Assembly (NCBI RefSeq): GCF_964188315.1
Contig: NC_135658.1
Span: forward strand, 42,718,001-42,782,000
DNA from: Podarcis muralis
Lineage: Eukaryota
Length of the DNA: 64,000 bases
Reading direction: 5' to 3'
Position numbers and translations under genes: made by a program. Below are positions 1,184-63,217 of the stretch, piece by piece (within the stretch, counting starts at the first letter, position 1; each line of letters opens with the position of its first letter). Below the pieces are notes generated by a model. It saw nothing but the letters and a program-made list of their open reading frames with translations, did not search any database and was not told the origin of the DNA.

Positions 1184-1795
1184 TGTGATGGCAGGGGGAC
1201 TTGGGCTCGGACTTGGAACCAGAGGAGTCTCAGTCCGCACTGGATCCTTTGCCTCAGGCAGCATCTGAACCAAGTCTGGGGCCTGATTCTGAAGAGCCCC
1301 AGTCTGCACAGGTTCCCCCGCAACAAACATCAGCTGGGCCGAGTCAGGGGCCTGAGCCTGCCCTGGCTCCAGATTACCTCATTGCCTTCAGCCGGGCAAT
1401 CACTTACAGCTGCTTCACTACCAGTTGGGTCAAGAGAGGCTGAGGCGGCCTCTGGGTCTAGTAACCCACCAACATCTCCCGAGCTGCAGAGACTAAGGTC
1501 TGAGAGAAGGAGAGACCTGAGTACTTGCAGGAGGAGTGCTCGCCTTCAGGCGAGACAGGGAGGTGAGTCACTGGGGGATCAGGACCGGCCGTTACCCTGA
1601 CAAAGATAAAAGGCTGTTGGACCCCGCCCCAGGTTGCAGGAGCAACATAGCTGTTTGCCAGAACCTGCCTTAAACCCTTTGCCTGACCTTGCCTGGTTTC
1701 CTGCCTTGGGCCTGTCGGACTGACTCCTTGCAGAACCCTTGGATACGGGACCGGACCTGGACCATGTTGCTCGGGTTACCCCCAGGCCCAGCACA
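1184..1795 (+). mobile_element. Solo LTR (Gypsy- or BEL-like), 612 bp
   Basis: TGTGATGG...CCCAGCACA termini, perfect 5-bp TSD CTAAC (1179-1183 and 1796-1800), TATA/polyA-like GATAAAAG and GC box; highly similar second copy at 6417. Confidence 0.85.
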
Positions 1796-2719: not shown

Positions 2720-3078
2720 CCGGGACACGGGTGGCGCTGTGGGTAAAAGCCTCAGCGCCTAGGGCTTGCCGATCGAAAGGTCGGTGGTTCGAATCCCCGC
2801 GGTGGGGTGCGCTCCCGTTGTTCGGTCCCAGCGCCTGCCAACCTAGCAGTTCGAAAGCACCCAGTAGATAAATGTGCAAGTAGATAAATAGGGACCGCTT
2901 ACTGGCGGGAAGGTAAACAGTGTTTCCGTGTGCGGCTCTGGCTCGCCAGAGCAGCAATGTCAGGCTGGCCACGTGACCCGGAAGTGTCTGCGGACAGCAC
3001 TTGAGTGAGATGGGCGCACAACCCTAGAGTCTGGCAAGACTGGCCCGTACGGGCAGGGGTACCTTTACCTTTACCTTT
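2720..3078 (+). mobile_element. Sauria SINE, full length
   Basis: gggacacgggtggcgctgtggg head, ggttcgaatcc B-box, (ACCTTT)3 tail, 9-bp TSD AGATAGCTA (2711-2719 and 3079-3087). Confidence 0.9.
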
Positions 3079-6416: not shown

Positions 6417-9400
6417 TGTAATGGCCTGGGACTTGGACTCAGACTTAGAACCAGAGGAGTCTCAGTCCGCACCAGATCCTTTGCCTCAGGCGGCATCTGG
6501 ACCAAGTCTGGGGCCTGATTCTGAAGAGACCCAGTCTGCACAGGTTCCCCTGCAACAAGCACCAGCAGGGCCAAGTCAGGGCCCTGAGCCTGCCCTGGCT
6601 CCAGATGCGGGAATTACCTATTTCCCTTCAGCTGGGCCATCACTTACAGCTGCTCCACTACCAGTTGGGTCAGGAGAGGCTGAGGTGGCCTCTGGGTCTA
6701 GTAACCAACCAACATCTCCCGAGCTGCAGAGACTAAGGTCTGAGAGAAGGAGAGACCTGAGTACTTGCAGGAGGAGTGCTCGCCTTTGGGAGAGACAGGG
6801 AGGTGAGTCACTGGGGGATCAGGACCAGCCGTTACCCCGTCAAAGATAAAAGGCTGTTGGACCCCGCCCCAGGTTGCGGGAGCAACAATTTTTTTTTTTT
6901 ATAATTTTTTATTAGAGATTTTTCTTATGGTTACAAAGATAAAACAAAACATGACAATACATTAAAACATAACAAACAAATAATAACAAGTATACTTTCA
7001 AATCTTATTTTCTTAAACCTTACTTCCCTGACTTCCTCATGCTTCCCCTTTCTGTGTTCCAATTTCTAATCAATTACTCAGCAAATCTTCTCGTATTTTA
7101 ACTTAATTTACTCATTTTTCTCCTTGTCTTAACCATTACCGCTATCAACCATTTATTTCACTAATCCATCATCCTTCTAAACTTCATAAATTTTGCAATA
7201 TTTCTTTAAATAGTCCTTAAATTTTCTCCACTCCTCCTCCGCTGCTTCTCTTCCCTGGTTTCGGATTCTGCTCGTCATCTCTGCTAGGACCATGTAGTCT
7301 ATCACCTTCATCTGCCATTCTTCCAAGGTGGGTAGATCTTGTGTCTTCCAGTACTTAGCGATGAGTATTCTTGCTGCTGTTGTAGCGTACATAAAAAAAG
7401 TCATATCCTTCTTTAACACCCCCTGGCCGACTATGCCCAAGAGAAAGGCCTCTGGTTTCTTTGGGAAGGTATATTTAAATACCTTTTTCAGTTCGTTATA
7501 TATCATTTCCCAGAATGCCTTAATCTTCGGGCACGTCCACCAGAGATGAAAGAACGTACCTTCATTTTCTTTACATTTCCAACATTTATTGTCAGGCAAA
7601 TGGTAAATCTTTGCAAGCTTGACTGGGGTCATGTACCACCTATAGATCATTTTCATAATATTTTCTCTTAGGGCGTTACACGCCGTGAACTTCATCCCGG
7701 TGGTCCACAACTTTTCCCAGTCAGCAAACATAATGTTATGCCCTATGTCCTGAGCCCATTTAATCATACTTGATTTGACCGTTTCATCCTGTGTATTCCA
7801 TTTCAACAGCAAGATGTACATTTTTGACAGATTTTTCTTACTGGGTTCTAACAATTCAGTTTCTAATTTTGATTTTTCCACCTGGAAGCCAATCTTACTA
7901 TCCATCTTAAAGGCCTCGTTTATTTGATGATAATGAAGCCAATCTCTCACTTTCTCTTTTAATTTCTAAAAACTCTGCAATTTCAGTTTATCCCCTTCCT
8001 TCTCCAAGATTTCCCAATATTTTGGCCACTTAGGCTCCATGTTTAACTTTTTAACTGCCTTAGCTTCCATTGGTGACAACCACCTTGGGGTTTTATTTTA
8101 TTGTTTTATTTTCCAACAAATCTTTATATCTGGTCCATACATTAAATAGTGCTTTTCTGACAATATGGTTTTTAAATCCTTTATGCGCTTTGACCTTGTC
8201 GTACCATAAATATGCATGCCACCCAAACGTATTATTGAAACCTTCCAAATCCAAGACATCTGTATTCTCAAGAAGTAGCCAATCCCTTAGCCAGCAAAAC
8301 GCTGCCGCTTCATAGTAAAGTTTAAAGTCTGGCAGGGCAAGTCCCCCCCTTTCCTTTGTATCTGTTAAGATCTTAAATTTTATTCTGGGCTTCTTGCCCT
8401 GCCAGACAAATTTAGATATATCTTTCTGCCACTTCTTAAAACAGTCCATCTTGTCTAGTATTTGCAATGCTTGGAACAAAAACAACATTCTTGGCAATAC
8501 ATTCATTTTTATAACTGCAATTCGACCCAACAAGGAAAGCTTCAAATTTGACCAAGTCTCTAGATCTCTTTTTACTTCTGTCCAAATTTTTTCATAATTG
8601 TCCTTAAATATGTTCACATTCTTCGTTGTCATATTTATCCCCAAATACTTCACTTTCTTAACCACAGTTAACCCTGTCACATTCTGAAACCTTTCTTTTT
8701 CAAACAATGTCATATTTTCCCCCAATACCTTAGTAAAAACTTAGTAAAAATTATTCAATTTAAATCCCGCCAGTTGACCAAACTCTTGAATTAATTCCAA
8801 AACCCTTTTCGTACTAGCTTCTGGCTCCTGCAGTGTAAGTACCAAGTCATCTGCAAATGCTCTCAATTTATATTGTTTTGCTCCGACCTGAATCCCTTTA
8901 ACCAACAGGTCTCCTCTGATCATATTTAGCAGAACCTCCAGGACTGAAATAAAAAGTAATGGAGAGATTGGGCACCCCTGACGTGTCCCTTTTTCTATCT
9001 TGAACTCTTCTGTAACAACGTTATTTACAATATTTTCGCTTTCTGCTCCGAGTATATGGCACCTATACCATTTTCAAACCCTTGGCCTACCCCCATCCCC
9101 CGGAGGTTCTTCATCATAAAACTCCAAGAAATGTTGTCGAAGGCTTTCTCAGCGTCTACAAATATCAACACTGCTTTGGTGTTTATATTCACCTCCAACT
9201 TTTCTAAAATGTCAATTATATTCCTTACATTATTCGACAAATGTCTTTTTGGGAGAAAGCCTGCTTGGTCCCCATGAATCTCCTCCATCAACACTCTTTT
9301 CAATCTCTTTGCTAAAATGTCCGCAAAAATTTTGTAATCCACATTCAATAATGAGATGGGACGGTAGTTCTTAAGTTGGGTCTTTTCAGTCTCTGTCTTT

Positions 9401-10098
9401 GGTATAAGTGTGATATAAGCCTCTCTCCACGTATCAGGTGCCTTTTTCCCTTCCATGATTTCATTACAAACTTCCTTCAAAGGTTTTATTAAGCATTCCT
9501 TCAAAACTTTATAATACTTGGAAGTCAATCCGTCCAGTCCTGGAGATTTGCCCAGCGTCATATTTTGAATGGCATCTTCTATTTCTTGTTCCGATATATC
9601 CTGATTCAACATTCTCTTACTTTCCTGAGAGATCTTTTTCAGTCCATTTTTCTCAAGGAATTGCTCTATTTCAGTTTCTTTCTGCGGCCCTTGTGAATAA
9701 AGTTGTCTAAAGTAGCTCTGAAAACAGTTTCTAATTTCCACTGGGTTACAAATATTCTTTCCATTCACTTCTAAACTTGTAACCGTGTTGAGTTTTTGTC
9801 TTTTCTTTATTTGCCAAGCCAATAACTTACCACATTTGTCTGCAGATTCAAAAATCTTTTGTCTCATTTGTTTAATTTTCCATTCTACTTCTTGATTCAT
9901 CATTTCCATAAACTGTGTTTGATATAATTTAATTTCTTTTAGAATCTCTTGCGATTTCGGTTTCGATCTTAGTTTCCTTTCCCCTTCTTTTATTTTTTCC
10001 AAAAATTTTTCTTTCTTCTCATTTTGACTTCTTTTTTTCAGAACAACATTGCGGGAGCAACATTGCTGTTTGCCAGAACCTGCCTGAGACCCTGCGCC
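6417..10098 (+). mobile_element. Second copy of the same LTR, split by an L1 (LTR parts 6417-6887 and 10049-10098), 3' end missing
   Basis: Starts TGTAATGG, colinear with 1184-1690; homology resumes after the L1 (gctgtttgccagaacctgcct) then stops near 10098. Confidence 0.85.
6888..10048 (-). mobile_element. 5'-truncated L1-clade LINE (ORF2 RT and C-terminal CCHC; endonuclease absent), frameshifted
   Basis: ORF pieces 9025-10002, 8741-8923, 8093-8725, 7177-7950 give YRPISLLNVDYK, DAEKAFD, AFADD, CWKC..HLWWTC; AATAAA and poly(A) at the 6888 end; 14-bp TSD TTGCGGGAGCAACA (6874-6887 and 10049-10062). Confidence 0.95.
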
Positions 10099-12888
10099 TG
10101 TGTAGTTACCATTGATTTCAGGGGTTTATGATGAGTGTGCATCCCCCTCCTCTCTCTCAAATCATTTCTGTTTCTCTTTGAAGTTCTTGGCTTAATTCTG
10201 AATTCCGTACTTGCATAGCTCAGGCTCAGCAATGGCATTTGGGTCTCAACAGCTGATCATCAGACAGCTTTAGAATCAGTGCTACAATAGTTCAGAGTGG
10301 GGTGGCATTCCACATTAGGAGCATAGGAAAATCCATGGGCAGGATCCCCAATTCAGCCCACAAACCAAACAGCCAACTCCAAGTTGCTCCTAATAAAAGA
10401 TTTAAGAAGGTTTAAGGTGGCCCTTAATCTTCATTCTCCATAAAAAACAAAGCCATGCTATGCTCTCTCCGCAGTAATATTATTATGTGGGTTCCTTATC
10501 CAGTCTTCAGTAAGTGGCTGGAAGCAGGGAAGCAGAAAGAAGGTCCAGCTCTTTCTTTTGCTCCGCGAGAGTGAACATAAACCATGGATTCTCCCCTTCC
10601 CTCAGATCTCATAGATCTCTCTGCTGCCACCTTAAATGAAGAGAATGCAGCCTGGTAGCAATGGATTGGGTTTGAATTTTGCTTTGCTTTTTGAAATAAT
10701 ATGAGATCTGAAACAGAGCCATTCTTCAAAATTCACAGGTATCTGAATTTTGCAATGCAGTTCTCCAACCAACTAGTGTTTTAAAATATGCCTTATATTG
10801 GGTCAAATTGTGCCTAAAATGAAAATCTTTGTAAAAATAACATACAAAAATGCATTGCATCATGAGAAAATGCTTGCAAAAAGGAGTGCACCAGTCAAAA
10901 CTGCATACATAAATGTGCTTATTAGAAAAAATATATATGCACTAAGGATTTGAAGAATTTTAAAAAAAGAAAATCCACAAACTGGTGCAGAAATAATGGG
11001 GAAAATGAGAAACCAAGAGAATGAACATTTACAGAGCCTTCCATCCCTAGCCAACAGTCTGGAATAATCTGGAGTTGGACTGGACACTGGGGCTTGATTG
11101 AAGCAGCCTCTCTGGGAGGAGTTACAGTGCTGGGAGTACCAGCTTCCAAATGTCTGTGTCTGTCCTTGAATTCTTCATGTGAAGCAAAATGGTCAGCACA
11201 GCCGTTGAGGTGTCAGGGCTCACCTTGCTTCCCAGTGTTGTGCATCACTGCTGGAGGGAAAGGCAGTGGGGAGTTCAGAGTGGTGTGGTTGCCCTATTGG
11301 GTGTACTGGATTGGCTCCACCTCTGTGTACCAGGTCCTCTCCAAGTCACATCCCAGAGTGGAGATATGTATATCCTCTGCATCATTTTCATTTTCGAAAA
11401 GGAGTAGCTGTACAAGTCTCATAAAGGCCTAGGGCATTGCAACCAATTCTAGGCCAAAGGTGAGGTACCTGTGGCCCACAAGTTGTTGCTGGAGTGCAAT
11501 TCCCATCAACAACAGTAAGTGTGGCCAATGGTCAGGGATGATGGGAGCAGATGCCTAGAGGACCACAGATTCCCCATTAGGAGTGCTACATCTGGATTTT
11601 TAGGCACTGAGTTTATAGGCACTTTGTTGGTGAGCTGAAAACAGAGTCCCCAGATTGTCTATAAATCTCCCTGTGCTCCCTATCTTAGCATTGCACCCCT
11701 GGAGACATTTTGGACATATGTAGGATTCACAGTACTTAGCTTGGGAAAGGGAGAAAGGGAGCAGCACTAACAAAAGTGCAGAGTGGAGAATGAGAAAGGG
11801 AAGAATCAGACTGCAGTCTGATTCTTGAAAGAAACATTGTGCTTTAAAAAATAAAATAAAACCAGTGATGTTGCTTGCGGGCAAAGGGTTTTACTATGTT
11901 GCGTTCAGTGGTGTCTTGAACTAAGACAACTGAAGATCCTTTGTCCCTTGTGAAGACAGGCCACTGATCAAAGCAACAGGGTGTAAACTTTACAGAACTA
12001 GCATATTCCAAGCATCTGGATGAGGTCTGGCTCTGCCTATACCTTTTTTAAATTGTTGTTGATATAAGATGTGTTTGTGCAGCACACCTGATCTTCACAA
12101 GATCCCCGTGCACAGGGGCTGCAGCCAAAGATGCTGTAGGGCTAGCATGGGCTGCACATTTGCACCACAACTTTCTGATGTCTATACTAGGGTGTTCCAG
12201 TGGGGAAGGCACACATGTTTTGGGGAGTGTCTGCCTGAATGTTACAAACAGGAGTGCGACTCACGCAAGAACACAAACACTTCCAGTGTGGAATCTGCAT
12301 ATCTTTCAATATCTTGTGTTGAATCCACAGTTGGGTGAGCAGACCACTCAAGCAATGGCTCGTTCCTGTCACTTCCTCAACCTTTCACCTTGCAAGAAGC
12401 CTCATTGGACAAATGGGGGACCTTCCTGACAGGACTTCAGTGAGAGGAGAGGAGAGAATTTTTAGAAGTCTCACATGAGTGGAAAAAGTCACCCTTCCAT
12501 AGCAGTCACTTCCATCACAGCCCATGCTATTCAGGATGGTCTCCCAAACCTATGGTGAGACTTTTGGGTGGATATAATAAAGGACAGGAAAGACCCATAG
12601 TTGTCTTCTGCTCTCTGTCTTTAGGTCTACCCTGAATATAATGATATGTCAATGAGCCTGTGCTTGGGATATACCTTATAATTATACTGATATGTTTTCC
12701 AATTCATTTCTGCTTGTATGCTATGAAATGCTAGAGCTGTTTAGCAAAATGGCAGAAAGGTTTGACGACATGGTCTCTGTACATAAGGATTTTTACCATA
12801 ATAAATTGCTGTGTTAACGCAGAAAACTAACTAGGCTGACTTGCTGGAATTTCCTCCTACCAAATACAAGGCCTTTCTAGTAGTTACG

Positions 12889-16679: not shown

Positions 16680-17789
16680 TCACACGGACAGGTCATCAGA
16701 GCGAGCTTTACTGCTGGCGCGGCTGGTTTTGCTGAGCCTACGTTTGTCATGGAAGTAGCCATTGGGAACCAGGGTGGGTGTGGAGCTATTGGCGGCCTCC
16801 GAAGCCTGAGAATAGTTAACTTGGATAAATGGCGCTTCCCTGTCTGCGTCGTCTTGGTTGTGAACCCTCTCCGTTGCAAAATTGGCAGTGTTCTGCTGAG
16901 AGGCCATTTTGTTGCTGAAGGGACTGATAAATTTTCCACCAGGGTTGGCCAAACACTGATTAAAATCTGGAGGAGGGGTACAGCTTTGGATCATCTTTGC
17001 TTGGGGGTCTGTTTCCAGTTTGCTGGCGACTGGGCTGGGGCTGCGTTTGTAAGAAGGGGAGAACTTCTGCTTGGCTTTCTTCCATCCCAAGTGATATAGT
17101 TCAGCCAGGCTTAAGAACAGGGAGAGTGCTGCTACGGCCAGCATGAAAATGATAAAGATGTTCTTCTCAGTTGGCCGAGAGACGTAGCAGTTGACTGGAT
17201 GGGGGCAAGGCTTCCGTTGACAGATATAGAGCGTCTCAAGGAAGATTCCATACAGCATGTACTGCCCAATGATGAATGCTACCTCCATGGTGGTACGGAT
17301 TAAAATGCTGCAGACGTAGGTGTTCAACAAAGTGCCTTGAAGAATGATCCTCCCACTTGGCTCATCCCAGCAGGACAGCTCCGCCTTCTCGGGCGCTTGG
17401 TACTCCTGCTGGTGGAAAGAATCTCCCTTGCTCTGAATTGCTGTCGCCGCTTCTTTGGCCTCCTTTAGCTTCCTCTTCTCCTCCATGCGCACTGTGTGCA
17501 TTGCATGTCCCATGTACAGCAGGGAAGGGGTGGAGACAAAGATGATCTGAAGGACCCAGTACCTGATGTGGGAGATGGGGAAAGCTTTGTCGTAGCAGAC
17601 GTTCTCGCAACCCGGTTGCCGGGTGTCACACATGAAGTCGGACTGTTCATCTCCCCACGAAGACTCTGCGGCTGTGCCCAGGACAAGCATCCGGAAGATA
17701 AAGAGCACGGTCAGCCAGACTTTCCCCACCACTGTGGAATGCTTGTGGACTTCCTCCAGGAATTCTCCTAGGAAGCTCCAGTCACCCAT
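16680..17789 (-). CDS. GJA5: Gap junction alpha-5 protein (connexin 40), 369 aa, single coding exon
   Basis: ORF starts [49 protein letters not shown], has all six extracellular cysteines ([12 protein letters not shown]; [12 protein letters not shown]), the Cx40-type [10 protein letters not shown] and MASQQNT motifs, and ends [14 protein letters not shown]. Confidence 0.97.
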
Positions 17790-17814
17790 TTTGGCTCAGC
17801 AGAGAGACTGGTCT

Positions 17815-27352: not shown

Positions 27353-29820
27353 TTATATGGCAGCTTCCAACAGTGAGATATGCATAAAATGGCTCACAAC
27401 ATAATAAATTGGTGTATTATTTAATGCAAAACACTGAAAGGGAGAGGTTGGGGGAAGAAAGCAATATTGTTGCTGTGTGAAACGGCCAGTTGTAGCTACA
27501 TTAGCCATGCATCTCAACTGGCACTCCTCAACTGCGAACCTGCACACCGCATTCTCTTGGAATTGCAACACTGAATTTTTTTAATTCTTCACTTCAACTA
27601 TGTCTGACATTATGAAATTACACTCAGGTTCTTACACACCTCTACACAAATCAATCAATGTGGTGCTTAAAAGGTGTGTGTGTGTGTGTGTGTGTGTGTA
27701 AGTGTGTGTAAAGGGTGTCTGTGTCGTAGAATGGTGAAAAGGTATCTTTAGGCAATATGCAGAAAAAGACTGGAATATTTTTTTTCTTGCTGTGGTTTGT
27801 TTGTGTGAGTTGGAATAGGGAATATGGTGTGGTACTTTACCCTTTCCCTACCTGCCAATTTCCTGCTCCAGATCTCTCCCCAAGCATCTTTTACTATCAA
27901 AACTCCAAGTCTGTGTTTATGCTTGGAGACCCCATTGCAGAGGCTAATGGGGAAAAGTTTGGAGTGGGGAAAACAGTGGGTGATAAAAGAGTTAAGCACC
28001 TTCTCCACTTTTTGATCAGCTTCAATTTGGCCGGAGAAAGCTAACTTTCTTGTGAAGCTCTCTCCTACTCCATATCTATTGTTAACAATGTGCAGTTTGT
28101 CCCTTTGCGGCAAGGAAAGAAATGGATTGTCTCAAGGAGGATGTCTTTTACAAATGCAAATAATACTTAAATATGCATTTGGTTTTTAGGCTCAGGGAAG
28201 AACCTGTGGAGTCATGACACATGTTTATTCAAAAGCCCATGTATAATGCAAGAGTATGAGCTCTTTTTGACTTGCAGATAAAGGCAGAGCAGCAAAGCAA
28301 AGCATGAACATTCATTGCATTATTCTACACATTTAGTTTGATAGACTGGCCCAGACCATTCAGTCATTGCTATAGGGAGAGAGAAAGCCCCTGTAATGGA
28401 TTTTATGATGATGTAATGACAGCAAGGAGGAGACACATTAGGTGCAGATTGCCTAAACCGTGGTGCTGTCATGTAATATGTACAAACATTCCAACTGTCT
28501 TGGGGAAAGTTCACAGTAATAGCTTGCAGCTTCAGTTTGGCTGGAGAAAGCTCTCGTCCATCCTAGGGCTGGACAGGAGGGCGTAGGCGGGGAGACTGCA
28601 GTTTAGAAAGCTGAAAGTGGAGAGTTTTCAGGAGGCAGATGGGCTAAGGAGTAAGCCTAGGGTCCAGATGGGGCTGAGCTGAAGAAGGGAAGGAACTGAA
28701 CCGAAAAAACAAGAACCTCAGAAGAGAGTAGGGGGGAGAAGATGAAGTCTGCAAAAAAGTCAGGGAACTGAGGAAGCAACTGTAGAAAAACATTCCAAGG
28801 CCTAAATATAGAAAGAGCTATGGGGAGGGCAGGGGGAGATGGAGGGAAGGGAGAGATGAATCTGCTGGCCAGGCTCTATAATGTAAAGAACACATATATA
28901 TATTGGAGAATGGCAGTGGTAGAACATCTTACATGCAGAAAGCGTCAGGTTCAATCCCTGGCATTGCCAGGGAAGGCTGAGAGAGTTCTGTACTTGAAAC
29001 CCTGAAGAGCTACTGCCAATTAGTGTATTATTTATATATTTCATTAAAAAATTATACACTGCTTGATTGTAAAAACAACAACAACAACCTCAAAGCAGTT
29101 TAGCGTAGATTGGCCAATAAACTTTATACTGTTTCTTACTATTTGTTCAAAAGGGAGGTCTCTGGAACCTCTGAAGACAGGATTATTATACAAAGAGAGC
29201 TGCCAAGATTGTTGCAAAGACAAAATAGGAACTTCCCTTTCATGCTGCCCTGAGCAGATTGCAGGAATAGTAGCAGACATTTGTGACAGACTGATAATAC
29301 CGCACAACAATAAATGCATTGCACTTTCCATTAGTGCTCAAAACTCTTCCTTCTGTGCGTTACTTTAGCATTTCCTACAACAGCTCTGTAAGGCAGGCAA
29401 GTATTATTATGCCCATATTAGAGATGGAAAGATAAGGAAGTTGAGAATGAGGACCGAACTACAGGTGTGCCAGTCTTGCTATTCATGCAGTTGCCCCATT
29501 CACAAATAAAACAGGGCTGTCTTCCTTTTCACAGTAAATAAATCATGCAGGAGAGGGATGTCTGTTACTCCATATTTCTACCTTTCTGAAGAGTAAGCTA
29601 TGAATGGAAGAAAGTGGCTGGCGCAGTGAACTAAGGGAAGGGAACGTGTGAAGAAAGGGTATTCACTACCCATCTCCTTTGGAGAAGAGCTATAGCTCAG
29701 TGGTGGGTCACATGTTTTGCATGTGTAAGGTTCAAGGTTGAGTCCCTGGCATCTCCAGGAAAGGCTGAAACCATGGAAAGCCATCGCTAATTGGTCTATA
29801 GACAGTATTGAGCTAGAAGG

Positions 29821-30040
29821 GAAGCGGGTGGTGCTGTGGTCTAAACCACTGAGCCTCTTGGGCTTGCTGATCGGAAGGTCGGTGGTTCAATCCCTGCGAC
29901 AGGATGAGCTTCCGTTGCTCTGTCCCAGCTTCTGCCAACCTAGCAGTTCGAAAGCACACCAGTGCAAGTAGATCAGGGGTCAGCAAACTTTTTCAGCAGG
30001 GGGCCGGTCCACTGTCCCTCAGACCTTGTGGGGGGCCGGA

Positions 30041-30075
<35 letters not shown>

Positions 30076-30777
30076 GGGGGGGGGGAAATGAACAAATTCC
30101 CACAAATAACCCAGAGGTGCATTTTAAATAAAAGGACACATTCTACTCAGGTAAGCCACCCCCCCATGACTCTCCCCTCCCTTCTCCACAGCACCGGATG
30201 AGCCCCGGTGGCTGCTTACCTGTGTCTTGAGAGTGGAAGGGGCTGGCAGCAGGGGGACGATGAGCAGCGCATGAAAGGGCTCCAGAGAGGGGCTGGCAGC
30301 AACAAAGCCCAAATTGAGCCTGCTTACAATGGCAGCCGCTCGAGCGCTAACGCTGCTGTTGCTGGCACCAACAAAGCCTAGTCCCCTTCCTCTTGGCTCT
30401 AGGTAGGGCGGGGAGAAGCCAGGAGGAGGGAGGAAGGAGGCGCTGCTGAACGCATGTGCTGGCACAGCCTGAACAATCAGCTCCACGCCAATCCACACGG
30501 TGATCCATGTGGCCTTAGTCTGCCTGCCCATGGAGTAGATAAATAGGTACCGCTGCAGCAGGAAGGTACACGGTGTTTCTGTGCACTCTGGATTCCCTTA
30601 TGGTGTTCCGTTGCGCCAGAAGTGGTTTAGTCATACTGGCCACATGACCTAGAAAGCTGTCTGCAGACAAATGCTGGCTCCCTCGTCCTGAAAGTGAGAT
30701 AAGCGCCACAACCCCATAGTCCCCTTTGACTGGACTTAACCATCCAGGGGGTCCTTTCCCTTTCCCTTTCCCCTAAC
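29821..30777 (+). mobile_element. Sauria SINE split by a hAT MITE and itself inserted in an older tRNA SINE
   Basis: SINE halves 29821-29973 and 30533-30777; TSD TGAGCTAGA(A/T)GG at 29809-29820 and 30778-30789. Confidence 0.85.
29974..30532. mobile_element. Non-autonomous hAT element with GC-rich interior
   Basis: Starts CAGGGGTCAGCAAAC, degenerate right TIR gtctgcctgcccatg, 8-bp TSD AAGTAGAT/GAGTAGAT; contains (CTAT)n. Confidence 0.75.
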
Positions 30778-49051: not shown

Positions 49052-50098
49052 TGTATAACTATACATTTGTATTCAAGAAGACTTTAGTGGAGTGATAAAC
49101 ATTTCTTTGGTGGAGAGTGTGGATTTGATTCTGCATGATGTTTAATTTTTGATGATATCCCAGCAAGGAGTTTTATCATCACAACAATCTTGTGAAGTGG
49201 ATTAGGGTTCATCCACACTTTCGCTTGACCAGCTTTGATTGTACTGTGTACCTATTAATGCCCCTGGCTCCAAGAGCTTTTCTTGTTGTTCTGTAGCTGT
49301 GCCTTGCTAAATATTGACCTTATCCATGGAATTGGATCTTATCAGATGCTTTGCTTAACCAATCAATTCAGTGGGTAAGATCGGATTTTCACAAGGCAAC
49401 AAGAAAAGCTCTTGGACCCCAGGGGAATTAAATAGTAAACAATACAATCAAAATACGAGGGAAAGTTAAGTGTGGATGAGCCCTCAGACTCAGCAAAAGG
49501 GTCTTGCCCCAGGATCTTAGATACAAGCTTGTCTGTCTGCTGGCAGCTTTTAAAAAAATTATTATTATTTATTAAGGGTGGCCTGCCTTGGAGCAGGATG
49601 GGGGTGAGGGAAGCAAAACACAATGATGCAATAAACACTTTGGGTGTGGCGCAAAATTGTCAGGGACACAGGGCACTTGAGTCCTTTGGCTGATAGAGAA
49701 CCGGAGCAGTGGCTTGTAAGCAGCAGGTCTCTGTGAAACGGTTCCCAAAGACTTTGTGCCAATTTCAGCACACAATGTTATCACTAGGAGCCAGCACACG
49801 GCCAGGCCTGCTGTGTTCACACAGTTTGGCCACCGGGGATTCAGCAAGTCCTTACAGATCTCAGCTGTTCATACTCCGGCTTCCTGGTTCTTGATGGCAA
49901 AGGACTAAGGAAAACCCTTTCTTCTCTGGTAACCCTTAGGGACTTATCATTCCTTGCACAAAAGCTGCAATTATCACCAGAATGTGAAACTGAGTGCCCA
50001 TCTCCCACCTTTTGAATGCTTATACTCTTTTCATGATCATAACTTCTGTTGGTCATATTGGTTCAGTTAGTCGTTTAGTTGTTTGTATCTGTTCAGGT

Positions 50099-50416
50099 AA
50101 GGGGTGGCGCTGTGGGTTAAACCACAGAGCGTAGGGCTTGCCGATCAGAAGGTCAGAGGTTCGAATCCCCATGATGGGGTGAGCTCCCGTTGCTCGGTCC
50201 CAGCTCCTGCCAACCTAGCAGTTTGAAAGCACGTCAAAGTGCAAGTAGATAAATAGGTACCGCTCCAGCGGGAAGGTAAATGGCATTTCCGTGCACTGCT
50301 CTGGTTTGCCAGAAGCGGCTTAGTCATGCTGGCTCCCTCAGCCAATAAAGTGAGATGAGCGCTGCAACCCCAGAGATGTCCGTGACTGGACCTAATGGTC
50401 AGGGGTCCCTTTACCT
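50099..50416 (+). mobile_element. Sauria SINE with an internal microhomology deletion
   Basis: 13-bp TSD TATCTGTTCAGGT (50086-50098 and 50417-50429); lacks the ccacatgacccggaagctgtacgccgg segment seen in the 57307 copy. Confidence 0.9.
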
Positions 50417-51592
50417 TATCTGTTCAGGTGGCATTCTCAGCCCGCTGGCCTCAAGAGTCTTAAAGAGAAATTCGCCCTTTTCTTGAGATTCCCCTTACCT
50501 ATTTATGGTTTTATTCCTGTGATTCAGTTTCTTAAAATTTATTTATTGTAACCTGCCCAAAAACCTTTATGTTATGAGGTGGCATATGAAGGACACAAAT
50601 TAATAAACAAGCAATACAGCATTTTAAATACTGTTTGTTTTAAAGTTTGCCCTTCTTTTTCTGTTTTGCTGGTCTATTATGTTAAAGACCCACTGCCTCC
50701 TTGAGCTTGGGCCCTGATACAGATCAGGTGTTTCACCCTGACATGGTAACAAAGGAAGCTGAGTTAAACCATGGGCCCATCTAGCTTGGTATTGTCTACA
50801 CTGGCAGGCAGCAGCGCTCTGGGATTTCAAGCAGGGAATCATTCCCATCCCTCCCTGGAGGATGGCTTTCTGCATCCAAGCAGAGTATTGATCACTGAGC
50901 TACAGCCCTTCCCCAATTTGCAGCAGCAGCAGTAGGTTTTTTAAAAGCCACCAAGAGCACAGCTGTAGAGCTAATACACCTTCTAGTTCAGCCCTTTCTT
51001 TTTGATAAGAGGTAGGTAGGAGTTATTTATAGCGTGTTCCTCTCCTCTTTAGTCCACCACCTTTGAGAACTGGAATGTAGGTTTTTCTTTCTAAAAAAGA
51101 AATAACAACTGAACTGCAAGGTGTTAATCTTTGGGGATTAGTTGCTGATGGAGACTTTCCACATAAGGACCCAAGTGCTGTCACGCTTCTGTCTATATCC
51201 TGAGGGCATGGACAAAGTATTCAGCACCCTTCTGAGGATGTGAAGACAAGCATTATCCAGGATTTGATACCAATGCAAGAGAAAGGCATGCAAAAATGGC
51301 ACCAAAGGTTTTTTGTATCACACCAACACCTCCAGAGTCCACCTAGCCTTCCTTTTTAAAAATAGCACAGAGATGCTATGTTGTGTCATCTTGTCTTTGA
51401 GGAAGACGGTTAAGTATCCGGTACCAAATGAAGTCCTTTCTGAGCATCCCTGGTGTTACTAGTTTTCAGCACAGAAGTACAACGCAATGGTAAAGAGACT
51501 CTGAGTGCCTCCAGATGACTTATCTAATTGAACATTCATCCTGGGACTCAGCTATACAGCTGCAAATAAAGGGTTTTAAACGTATTGCAAAG

Positions 51593-55027: not shown

Positions 55028-57306
55028 AATAACCACCTAAATTAGGACAAAGGGAATAGGCTCAGGTTACATCCTAAAGTTACTATCAATCCTAAATAAA
55101 CCATATTCATGTGCGAATACAGCACCCCCTTGTGGAATTAACCAAAGGCCTGCAGTCAAACAGCTAGCGATTTCAAAGCAGTATGCAGTCCGTTATCTCT
55201 ACTTTCTCTTCCTCAGGTTCCTTTTCATGGTCAAAGTCATCCCTTTAGTGTTCTTCTTTCCCCCTCATTTTGGTGGACAATGCTCAAGTGCCAACCCTCC
55301 TTTCCTAAGCGTCCCTGGTTGCTCCCCCTGGCCAGCAGCCCTTTCAGACCCATTCCCCTTTCTTCCTATCCCAAACGCCTTCCCTAGGCCCTCTGATATG
55401 GCCTGCCCTAATCCTAGACTGCATACACACCATACATTTAAAACAAATGTTCACCCACCCTCCCGGCAAATCCTGAGAATTATAGTTTACTTCTCACATT
55501 CCCAGCACCCTTAAAAACCTTCAGTTCCTAGGATTTTGGGGCATGTGTATGTGTACGTGCCTAAAATGTATGGGGCTGACATTAACTCACTTTTACTCAT
55601 GAGTATACCCATTGAAATTAATGGACCTACGTTATGGCTATTCCTTTCAATGGATCTACTCTGAGGAAAAGGAAAAGTTAGTTGAATATACTGCATGGTA
55701 GGTATCCAGGCAGCTCTAGAGATCAGGGTAGTTCAGGCAATGGGAACCACAAATCATTTCTGAGGATAAGAGCAGCTGAGCCAATGGCTGCCACAGAATG
55801 AATCACCATTACCTTCACCGCAAAACCCTTTAGCGATTTACAATACAGATAATTTGCAAAATAAAACAAAAGAAAACAAAAATGATACTCTCTAGCCTTA
55901 GCCAGGATCCAAAGGGAGAAACACGGATACACAGTATATACAAAGAAAAATATTTTATTGGTGTGACTAGTTTTAAAGGAACTTTAAAAGTGCATAAATC
56001 TTACGAAGTTCTCCTTCAGGAACGCGTGTCCATGGTTAAAATAACATAAGATGGATAGCTAATATAAACTGATATAAACTCAGTTATAACAAGCGTCGAG
56101 AAAAAGCCGATATCTCGATAAGAGGAAACCTTAGCCGAATTGTTCAGGCGATGGCACAAGGCTTAAGCTGTTGAGTGTTTTTGTGAACAAACTACAAAAC
56201 CATACTGAGTCAGGCGAACCCTTAAAAAGTTAAGCACAATTTGTGCTACTTCATTTGAGTACAAGAGGAGGCTCTGCCCCCCCTCCAAGTAGGTTGCCAT
56301 GTCGTTGTGACTTGCATTTTACCTCCATTATATTAAAAATCACCCAGCTTTTTACAAAATGTTTTGCTTGGTCTCGATCTGTAAGGAACATCTGGCCCTC
56401 CAGATGTGGACTCCAACTCCCATCAGCACCAAGCTGGACAGAGATGATGGTAGTTATCATCCAACACCTGTAGGGTCCTTGGTCTGGATCCTAATAGCGG
56501 GGTAATCTTAGTTGTGGCTTCTAGAGCCATTGTGATCTGGTAGCTGCAGCAAGGACCAAGGAGCAGAGATGGTGGGGTGTGTGGGTACAGCTGAATTTCA
56601 TTGATTCATTTGAACTAACCAGTTCAGTTTACAGCCACACACACCTACGACACTCAATGTTGGAAGGTCCTCTGAAAACGTGCACAGCCATATGGAGAAG
56701 TCAAGAGGTACGGGTAACATTCGATATTCGTCTGCTGTAGTCCTTACACTAACTTTGTTAAAGTGACTTAGAAACTCAGGATTTCCAACCATATGAGCCA
56801 ACTGGGGTTTTCTAGTAATGTAGCACAGTTTTTCTTGCAGGGGACTCCTCAGTGTCTAGCCTTAGTGTTTAGTGGATGGCCTGTAGGTTTGCTATGTTCA
56901 GCACATTAGCAGGAAACATGAAAGCTGATTTTGAGCTAAGCAGATCAAGAGATGATAACTTTGTTGCAGGGGTCGTTCAGTCCCACAATCTGCAGCTGTG
57001 TCCTATCTATCTGACAGGAACGCGCCCTCATGCATGAACTGCTCTGCTCAACAAAAGGGCCCTGCCTTACCCTGACACCATTGTGTAGGAAATCCCCTTG
57101 AAACAAAAAACTCGTTCTCCTCTCTGCTGTTCCATGCACTGGACTCCAAGGAAAGGTCTGGGTTGCAAAGGCAGCTTGATTTCTCTGTGTTGCTGCAAGG
57201 AAAAGTGTGATGCTTTATTTCCAAAATGAGTGGTGGCCGAGGTTCAAGTTGACGTGGAACAGCTTCCATAGGTTACTAGATTTGTCTTCTTTTACATACA
57301 TACATA

Positions 57307-57653
57307 GGGACGCGGGTGGTGCTGTGGTCTAAACCACAGAGCCTAGGGCTTGCCGATCAGAAGGTGGGCGGTTCAAATCCCCGCGATGGGGTGAGCTCCC
57401 GCTGCTTGGTCCCTGCTCCTGCCAACCTAGCAGTTTGAAAGCACGTCAAAGTGCAAGTAGATAAATAGGTACCGCTCCGGCGGGAAGCTAACAGTGTTTC
57501 CGTGCACTGCTCTGGTTCGCCAGAAGCAGCTTAGTCATGCTGGCCACATGACCCGGAAGCTGTACGCCGGCTCCCTCGGCCAGTAAAGTGAGATAAGCGC
57601 TGCAACCCCAGAGTCGGTCACGAATGGACCGAATGGTCAGGGGTCCCTTTACC

Positions 57654-57657
<4 letters not shown>
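57307..57657 (+). mobile_element. Sauria SINE, full length, flanked by (TACA)n
   Basis: gggacgcgggtggtgctgtggtc head, ggggtccctttaccttt tail; TACATACATAC at both ends. Confidence 0.9.
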
Positions 57658-57685
<28 letters not shown>

Positions 57686-61860: not shown

Positions 61861-61920
61861 CTTCTTTTGAAATGCGACATGTGCTGAATATATTAAAACC
61901 CTTCTTTATATAATGCAACT

Positions 61921-61945
61921 TAATCATTGTCTTCCTCTTAAACAG
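61921..61945 (+). promoter_or_regulatory. Splice acceptor of the GJA8 coding exon (exon begins 61946, 6 nt before ATG)
   Basis: cattgtcttcctcttaaacAG|ccagaaATG; connexin alpha genes have a non-coding exon 1 and a coding exon 2. Confidence 0.75.
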
Positions 61946-61951
61946 CCAGAA

Positions 61952-63217
61952 ATGGGTGACTGGAGTTTCTTGGGGAACATTTTAGAAGAGGTGAATGAAC
62001 AATCCACGGTCATTGGGAGAGTCTGGCTGACTGTCCTCTTCATTTTTCGGATCCTAATCCTTGGGACTGCTGCAGAATTTGTATGGGGAGACGAACAGTC
62101 AGATTTTGTGTGCAACACCCAGCAGCCAGGTTGTGAAAATGTGTGCTACGACGAGGCCTTCCCCATCTCCCACATCCGACTGTGGGTCCTGCAGATCATC
62201 TTTGTCTCCACTCCCTCGCTGGTTTATTTGGGCCATGCTGCGCATCATGTAAGGATGGAAGAGAAAAGGAAAGAGCGGGAAGAAGCAGAGAGGGCTCAGC
62301 AAGCTGCGGCACACGAAGAAAACTCACCCCTTGATCCAGACCGGAAGAGCCCTATAACCACGAGAGAAGCAAGCTCCAAGGGGACCAAAAAGTTCCACCT
62401 CGAGGGAACGCTCCTGAGAACCTATATTTGCCACATCTTTTTCAAAACCCTTTTTGAGGTGGGGTTCATAGTGGGCCAGTACTTCTTATATGGCTTCCGA
62501 ATTCTTCCGCTTTACCGCTGTGGCAGATGGCCTTGCCCCAACCTCGTGGACTGTTTTGTGTCCAGGCCTACCGAAAAGACTGTTTTCATTGTGTTTATGC
62601 TGGCTGTGGCATCAGTCTCTCTCTTCCTCAATCTTGTGGAGATCAGCCACTTAGGCTTTAAGAAGATCCTGGGTGCTTTCAGGAGGCCAGTGGAGCAAGA
62701 GCCTCAGGAGACCCCAGAGAAACCCCTTCATTCTATCGCGGTTTCGTCTATCCAGAAGGTCAAAGGCTACAAGTTGCTGGAGGAAGAGGAGAAGCCGACG
62801 TTCCACTATTTCCCTTTGACCGAAGTGGGAGTAGAAACCACCCCAGTTCCCCCCTCATTCAACGACTTTGAGGAGAAGATCAGCATGGAACGCCTGAAAG
62901 ACCTTTCCAGGGCCTTGGGGGAGCACCTGCCTTCCTACGCTCATGCGGATGAACAGGAGGAGGAGAAAGTTGAAGCAGGAGAGGAGCCGGAACAGGAAGT
63001 GGCTGAGGCGGCGGCCCAGGAACAGAGGGTGGAACTGGTGACTGAGGAAGCCCCAGAGAAAGGAGAAGATGACAAGCATATGGAGGAGGAACAAGAGCCA
63101 GAGCCGCCGGGAGAGGACTTGCCTTTACCATCCGCTGATTTTAACACTGACACAAGACCCCTCAGCAGGTTAAGCAAAGCCAGTAGTCGTGCCAGGTCAG
63201 ATGATCTGACTGTATGA
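61952..63217 (+). CDS. GJA8: Gap junction alpha-8 protein (connexin 50), 421 aa, single coding exon
   Basis: [78 protein letters not shown]; KGYKLLEEE and HYFPLTEVG motifs, Glu-rich tail, ends [20 protein letters not shown]; divergent from GJA5 as in other amniotes. Start placed at the family-conserved Met, 13 codons into the listed ORF. Confidence 0.97.

Follow-up and report, generated by a model that had tools for sequence, protein, structure and literature searches.

The window, by which we refer to the whole stretch of 64,000 nucleotides of Podarcis muralis DNA that was analyzed (assembly GCF_964188315.1, contig NC_135658.1, positions 42,718,001 to 42,782,000 of the forward strand), contains two copies of a repeat of about 620 bp that presents the form of a solo LTR, with TG..CA ends and a 5-bp target duplication. 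Copy 1 is complete. Copy 2 starts at 6417 with TGTAATGG (the family start being TGTGATGG), is interrupted by an antisense LINE from 6888 onwards and lacks the greater part of its U5. The features considered below, numbered from the first letter of the window, are:

1184..1795, plus strand: copy 1, a complete solo LTR (TGTG..CACA) flanked by a 5-bp target duplication of its own, CTAAC; its frame is broken
1529..1546, plus strand: RRSARL of copy 1
6417..6888, plus strand: solo LTR copy 2, U3 and the beginning of R, 92% identical to copy 1
6421..6849, plus strand: frame of 142 codons, homologue of a gag-pol/integrase C-terminal tail that is read through in the sister element L097
6769..6786, plus strand: RRSARL, an HMGN-like motif and candidate acidic-patch anchor, with six residues identical in three families
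6845..6852, plus strand: GATAAAAG, a presumed TATA-like box that contains the stop codon; a GATAAA box is found at the equivalent place in sister LTRs
6876..6885, plus strand: GCGGGAGCAA, predicted R start and self-priming target, with a 10-nt complement past the 5' LTR of L097
6888..10048, minus strand: LINE with reverse transcriptase fragments (RVT_1, E 1.9e-16), inserted in copy 2
10063..10100, plus strand: short copy 2 remnant beyond the LINE (blastn of 10049-10100 against copy 1)

The frame described for copy 2 in the first-pass annotation was found in full on recount: 142 codons, opened by an ATG at LTR base 5 (6421) and closed by a TAA (6847-6849) that falls within GATAAAAG. It encodes an acidic, Pro-rich linker (102 aa with 15 D/E and no K/R), followed by a basic segment. 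RRSARL was verified at 6769-6786 and 1529-1546, as were the 78 nt that are the same in both copies. For copy 1, a single frameshift had been counted; the 8-nt gap near 1374 was confirmed, but when counting from the LTR start at 1184 there is a second break near the ATG, and the frame ends at 1600, three codons short.

The LINE in copy 2 is flanked by a 14-nt target duplication (6874-6887 and 10049-10062), and its insertion (window 6888-10048, minus strand) hit the predicted R start. We also considered whether copies 1 and 2 could be the two LTRs of a single element. This was rejected, given that copy 1 is flanked by a separate target duplication and that the sequence separating the copies contains no gag/pol. 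Elsewhere, the window contains two intact connexin frames, at 16680-17795 (minus) and 61871-63217 (plus), which are presumably GJA5-like and GJA8-like, and a dispersed repeat family (2730-3074, 29810-30761, 50086-50420 and 57298-57658) that we take to be Sauria-SINE-like.

The LTR family of the window

A search of the genome (1.5 Gb) for this family gave 2166 first-look candidates, of which 40 were scored and 30 fetched, while 16 further loci came from a pattern that combined the 16 initial bases with a purine run. Where both ends were located, members are about 585-635 bp long, start with TGTGATGG and end with CAGCACA. An exact 5-bp target duplication flanks 15 of the 30 loci and 6 of the 16, in addition to copy 1. 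For the alignment of 44 copies used below, L033, L044 and L046, being truncated or rearranged, were left out. The window frame is the only one of the six frames without a stop common to half the copies, and its openness exceeds what chance would give.

No gag or pol was found in the window or within 1.5 kb of 46 window-family loci (of about 2000 candidates), and the three junction patterns used to look for a full-length member returned nothing, 16 solo or chance matches and nothing, respectively. For the peptide itself, a search for longer homologues found none, the ESM Atlas search gave no usable match, and Pfam returned no family for the frame at E up to 1 or up to 5, the HMGN model included. 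In four raw-read runs, possibly from a different species, 30 reads fitted partly, with zero depth over 6444-6715; in the same runs, a sister-like integrase showed low cover, mostly on one strand. We base no conclusion on either result.

A sister element that reads through into its LTR

The integrase-core search returned chiefly endogenous retroviruses and Copia elements; among 20 stretches fetched around integrase matches, one carried a 70%-identical LTR segment. This element, L097, is 5.7 kb long; its two 677-bp LTRs are identical to each other, and it is flanked by a 5-bp target duplication. Its single frame of 1545 aa comprises gag, protease, RT, RNase H, integrase, SH3, chromodomain and an LTR-coded tail; it spans the polypurine tract as ...GPGRGDG-VMAWDS..., continues at its end through ...SPRRSARLKAKRGG... 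ahead of the TATA-like box and terminates with ...LVSPRRSARLKAKRGGASGGRDRPRP, the GATAAA box following immediately. The part of the frame that lies in the LTR is homologous to the window frame. One of the options raised in the first-pass annotation, namely that the peptide terminates an ORF which extends into the 3' LTR, is what this full-length sister shows.

In the integrase tree, L097 is placed in a clade with Anolis and Leptobrachium (frog) proteins, with a support of 96/93, and the same protein is annotated in Podarcis muralis (P0003). Its chromodomain, located upstream of the polypurine tract, can be aligned with that of HP1, and its aromatic residues occupy what we take to be the positions of the methyl-lysine cage. 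Directly after the 5' LTR, 10 nt are complementary to the LTR sequence GCGGGAGCAA, a target that is retained in the window copy, and a self-priming site rather than a tRNA primer site is predicted from this match. Self-priming is expected in the Tf1/sushi group (PMC6317226).

Among the 28 chromovirus loci obtained by the chromodomain search (after exclusion of L129 and L130, which are cellular chromodomains), the coding frame agrees with that of the LTR in 19; in the other nine, it is shifted within the G-rich stretch that precedes the LTR, owing to decay or assembly error. Many sister copies present identical LTR pairs about 5 kb apart, which points to recent movement of the sister family. 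At the L087/L097 locus, the young chromovirus is nested in an endogenous retrovirus, within its env gene. Of the matches to integrase and to the chromodomain, a large share lies on the 30-Mb contig C20, which, as a guess, is possibly a sex-limited chromosome.

Considering these data, the window frame is almost certainly a U3-coded integrase tail that stems from a Tf1/sushi chromovirus, and we hold with the same high confidence that the window family once had the read-through of its sister. As U3 is copied into both LTRs, the tail is found in every solo LTR. As a further consequence of the integrase tail being coded in the LTR, thousands of lizard solo LTRs resemble acidic protein-coding genes and enter gene models. 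The gene models P0197, P0036 and P0037 (the first two labelled Podarcis muralis by their source) start at the LTR ATG and run on into other sequence, and are probably annotation artefacts.

Constraint between families and decay within the window family

A third family with RRSARL (L226-L255), consisting of solo LTRs with 2309 first-look candidates and 20 of 30 frames open, bridges the window family and the sister family. Between the three families, the dN/dS of the tail is 0.26, 0.36 and 0.43, and that of the basic core is 0.24, 0.12 and 0.22. Single pairs of window family and sister, analyzed without L144, gave dN/dS values of 0.19-0.22 (Fisher p below 1e-8). Amino-acid identity between families is 0.91 for the motif, 0.79 for the basic core and 0.45 for the linker. 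It should be considered that protein-guided alignment favors a result of constraint, and we thus repeated the comparison with DNA-only alignments. A third-position excess was found in 12 of 12 pairs that include the window family (p 2e-6 to 1e-3) and was weak in the four pairs of sister and third family (p 0.03-0.08). In the cleanest pairs, the gaps within the frame are 18, 18 and 3 nt; those past the stop are -10, -8, -12, 1 and 24, and do not follow multiples of three. The tail is, therefore, under coding constraint between the three related LTR families, and the LTR identity and coding frame proposed in the first-pass annotation are both supported, with conservation at the codon level between families.

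Within the window family, the picture is different. The 190 non-CpG changes found in single copies comprise 51 synonymous, 133 non-synonymous and 6 stop changes, for an expected synonymous share of 0.245-0.305 (p 0.3-0.6). The tail thus decays neutrally within this family, and the window copies are decaying relics. Changes common to several copies are silent more often (27 of 65 cases, p 0.002-0.04), as expected if selection acted during replication of the element.

Two observations had been made on the window copies alone, and both lose their weight at this scale. The 6 synonymous and 6 non-synonymous differences reported over 56 codons became 6 and 7 when recounted from 1201/6433, and such two-copy statistics are noise. 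The 78-nt identity carries no weight either: the divergence of this block is 0.085 as compared to 0.087 for the rest of the ORF in the 44 copies. Identity over the block is found in 2 of 946 copy pairs, and an identical run of 80 or more has a P of about 0.04 at the divergence of copies 1 and 2. The 78-nt identity is due to chance.

These data also bear on the second option of the first-pass annotation, a separate product, here understood as a chromatin peptide of 142 aa that solo LTRs would start at an ATG of their own and that host or element would preserve. In its favor, 24 of the 44 frames are open, and the Podarcis muralis gene model P0197 starts with the ORF. However, the proportion of open frames depends on the selection of copies, with 19 of 30 among those chosen by likeness to copy 2 and 5 of 13 among those chosen by the LTR start only, regardless of the ORF body. 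RRSARL is intact in 25 of the 44 copies, with losses mostly at the CpG of the last arginine codon, and the codon of the anchor arginine is intact in just 29. Moreover, the ATG at base 5 belongs to the terminal TGTGATGG, and the predicted promoter is located downstream of it, such that the peptide is not expected from solo copies. Together with the neutral decay, this makes a separate product, or selection on these copies, highly improbable. Read-through in the sister, constraint between families and neutral decay within the window family instead argue for an integrase tail over a separate or host-selected peptide.

The RRSARL motif as a candidate nucleosome anchor

To our knowledge, little is known of the ways in which Gypsy elements of vertebrates find and select chromatin. 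Our literature searches, at the level of titles and abstract openings, found no description of an acidic-patch tether or of an HMGN-like motif on a retrotransposon integrase, nor was the tail described in the vertebrate chromovirus, squamate Gypsy or Podarcis literature that was found, although Repbase, Dfam and subscription journals may note the read-through. If the motif binds, target choice could be tested through a short sequence, and clades with and without the motif are available in the Podarcis genome for comparison.

RRSARL is present in all three families, that is, RRSxR with its three arginines. The full octapeptide RRSARLSA is absent, with RRSARLWE in copy 2 and LRA, LQA or LKA in other copies and families. 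The residues of the HMGN motif that are essential were taken from PMC12487698 and PMC13347269. In these sources, RRSAR of HMGN2 and RRSSR of Dsup are located on the acidic patch by cryo-EM (PMC12487698), the final SA is lacking in Dsup (RRSSRLTS) and Dot5 (RRSARIAT), which bind all the same (PMC12487698, PMC13347269), and binding of yeast Dot5 through RRSARIAT requires its three arginines (PMC13347269). Given the Dot5 and Dsup precedents, the missing final SA does not exclude binding.

The first-pass annotation had made its reading depend on conservation of the motif in related families. RRSARL is kept in three families and is absent from two other lizard LTR clades, the tails of which are of like layout, acidic and then basic, which counts in part against that reading; across the lizard clades, the common features are an acidic linker, [S/T]P and a basic end. 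Proteins from Rhineura, Crotalus and Vipera likewise present acidic-then-basic tails without RRSARL. Frames of this layout were seen in several groups of loci. In a second chromovirus clade (L159-L188), the frame of 15 of the 30 loci extends to one shared stop within the LTR, and the tail contains acidic tracts and RRRLPRRE.RRRL..KKFRKRP, with no RRSARL. Two LTR-like families, L011:2113-2619/L189-L208 (solo, 2079 first-look candidates) and L052 (minus strand, from 629), have an acidic-then-basic frame in the same phase. In L090 and L092, which are of Copia type, RRSQR is found in pol between integrase and RT, a similar motif in a different superfamily.

This distribution can also be read as that of an integrase tail in which the basic end serves as a nuclear localization signal or a general DNA/RNA-binding helix, with the HMGN match being incidental. 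The clades indeed share the acidic linker, [S/T]P and the Arg/Lys-rich end rather than RRSARL; the helix LQRLR.ERRR.L equals the motif in protein conservation, with many silent changes; and nuclear localization signals at the C-terminus of the Ty1 integrase have been reported, as seen from reference titles in PMC3605345. However, the three residues that precede the motif differ between families while its six residues are constant, and exact RRSARL recurs in two other chromovirus proteins. Specifically, among 80 other chromodomain tails, retrieved with a query that itself carries RRSARL, two (P0029 and P0149) have exact RRSARL after the chromodomain, as compared to 0.005 expected from shuffles, and in the integrase tree P0029 is distant from the lizard element. 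No enrichment was seen for the looser R[RK]SxR (2 of 80, 1.2 expected). We consider this reading to be rather unlikely.

The motif could also be conserved as DNA, with the tail being coding but RRSARL fixed because its DNA serves as a promoter element in U3, some 60-75 nt ahead of the TATA-like box. In this respect, 17 of the 18 motif nucleotides are identical across the three families, and the families agree in five of the six motif codons as compared to 16 of the 40 conserved positions outside the motif (binomial p 0.04), such that some constraint on the motif at the DNA level may exist. In addition, a genome-wide pattern for two silent changes returned one copy and no family. Yet, the codon test is marginal and post hoc, with a stricter count of 4 of 6 codons giving a Fisher p of 0.38, and the sole family-level change, in the Leu codon, is silent. 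As a promoter element would also leave P0029 and P0149 unexplained, we regard this explanation as distinctly improbable.

We thus lean, if only slightly, towards the reading that the window frame is the relic of a Gypsy chromovirus gag-pol tail, the RRSARL of which would anchor the integrase on the nucleosome acidic patch. For the motif taken by itself, a candidate role as anchor on H2A-H2B, judged from its sequence, appears about evenly balanced. In the mechanism we propose, the chromodomain on the integration complex would read the methylated H3 tail, and the arginines of RRSAR, which an acidic and flexible linker of 75-100 residues carries at its end, would dock on H2A-H2B. Such docking would tether the complex to chromatin and bias the place or the time of integration. 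The combined action of the two contacts is, in our estimation, a matter of even chances. More speculatively, phosphorylation of the motif Ser and of nearby SP sites could turn docking off. That a residue at the integrase C-terminus can matter for targeting is known from Tal1 and EVD, where a single R/K change switches targeting (PMC11735389). The broadest form of our proposal is put forward tentatively and may well be wrong: a two-point nucleosome reader on the lizard integrase, combining the chromodomain with an LTR-coded anchor that mimics HMGN, would steer integration, and RRSARL would have been reached independently in unrelated chromoviruses.

When compared to known systems, the sister element agrees with the Tf1/sushi (V-clade) chromoviruses in domain order, C-terminal chromodomain, predicted self-priming and 5-bp target duplication (PMC6317226). 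It differs in its tail, with 110-140 residues, acidic and then basic, past the chromodomain and within the 3' LTR, while the window family differs in being known from solo LTRs alone. In plant CRM elements, a targeting module is also coded in the 3' LTR (PMC3059260, PMC3605345). In CRM group A, however, the CR motif replaces the chromodomain, whereas the lizard element keeps an HP1-like chromodomain upstream of the polypurine tract and its LTR adds a second, short linear motif. With HMGN, Dsup and Dot5, the tail shares the RRSAR core with three arginines in a low-complexity setting. Unlike HMGN, which is a stand-alone cellular gene, the window frame is part of an LTR and belongs to a retrotransposon polyprotein; it has 6 of the 8 residues of RRSARLSA and no Pfam HMGN match, and its binding is putative. 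Finally, foamy virus Gag tethers the integration complex via the acidic patch, loss of this anchor redistributes integration sites, and p12 of MLV has been suggested to act similarly (PMC9040877 and PMC12125541). The foamy virus and MLV anchors lie in Gag and are unrelated in sequence, whereas the lizard candidate is located on the integrase, in tandem with a chromodomain.
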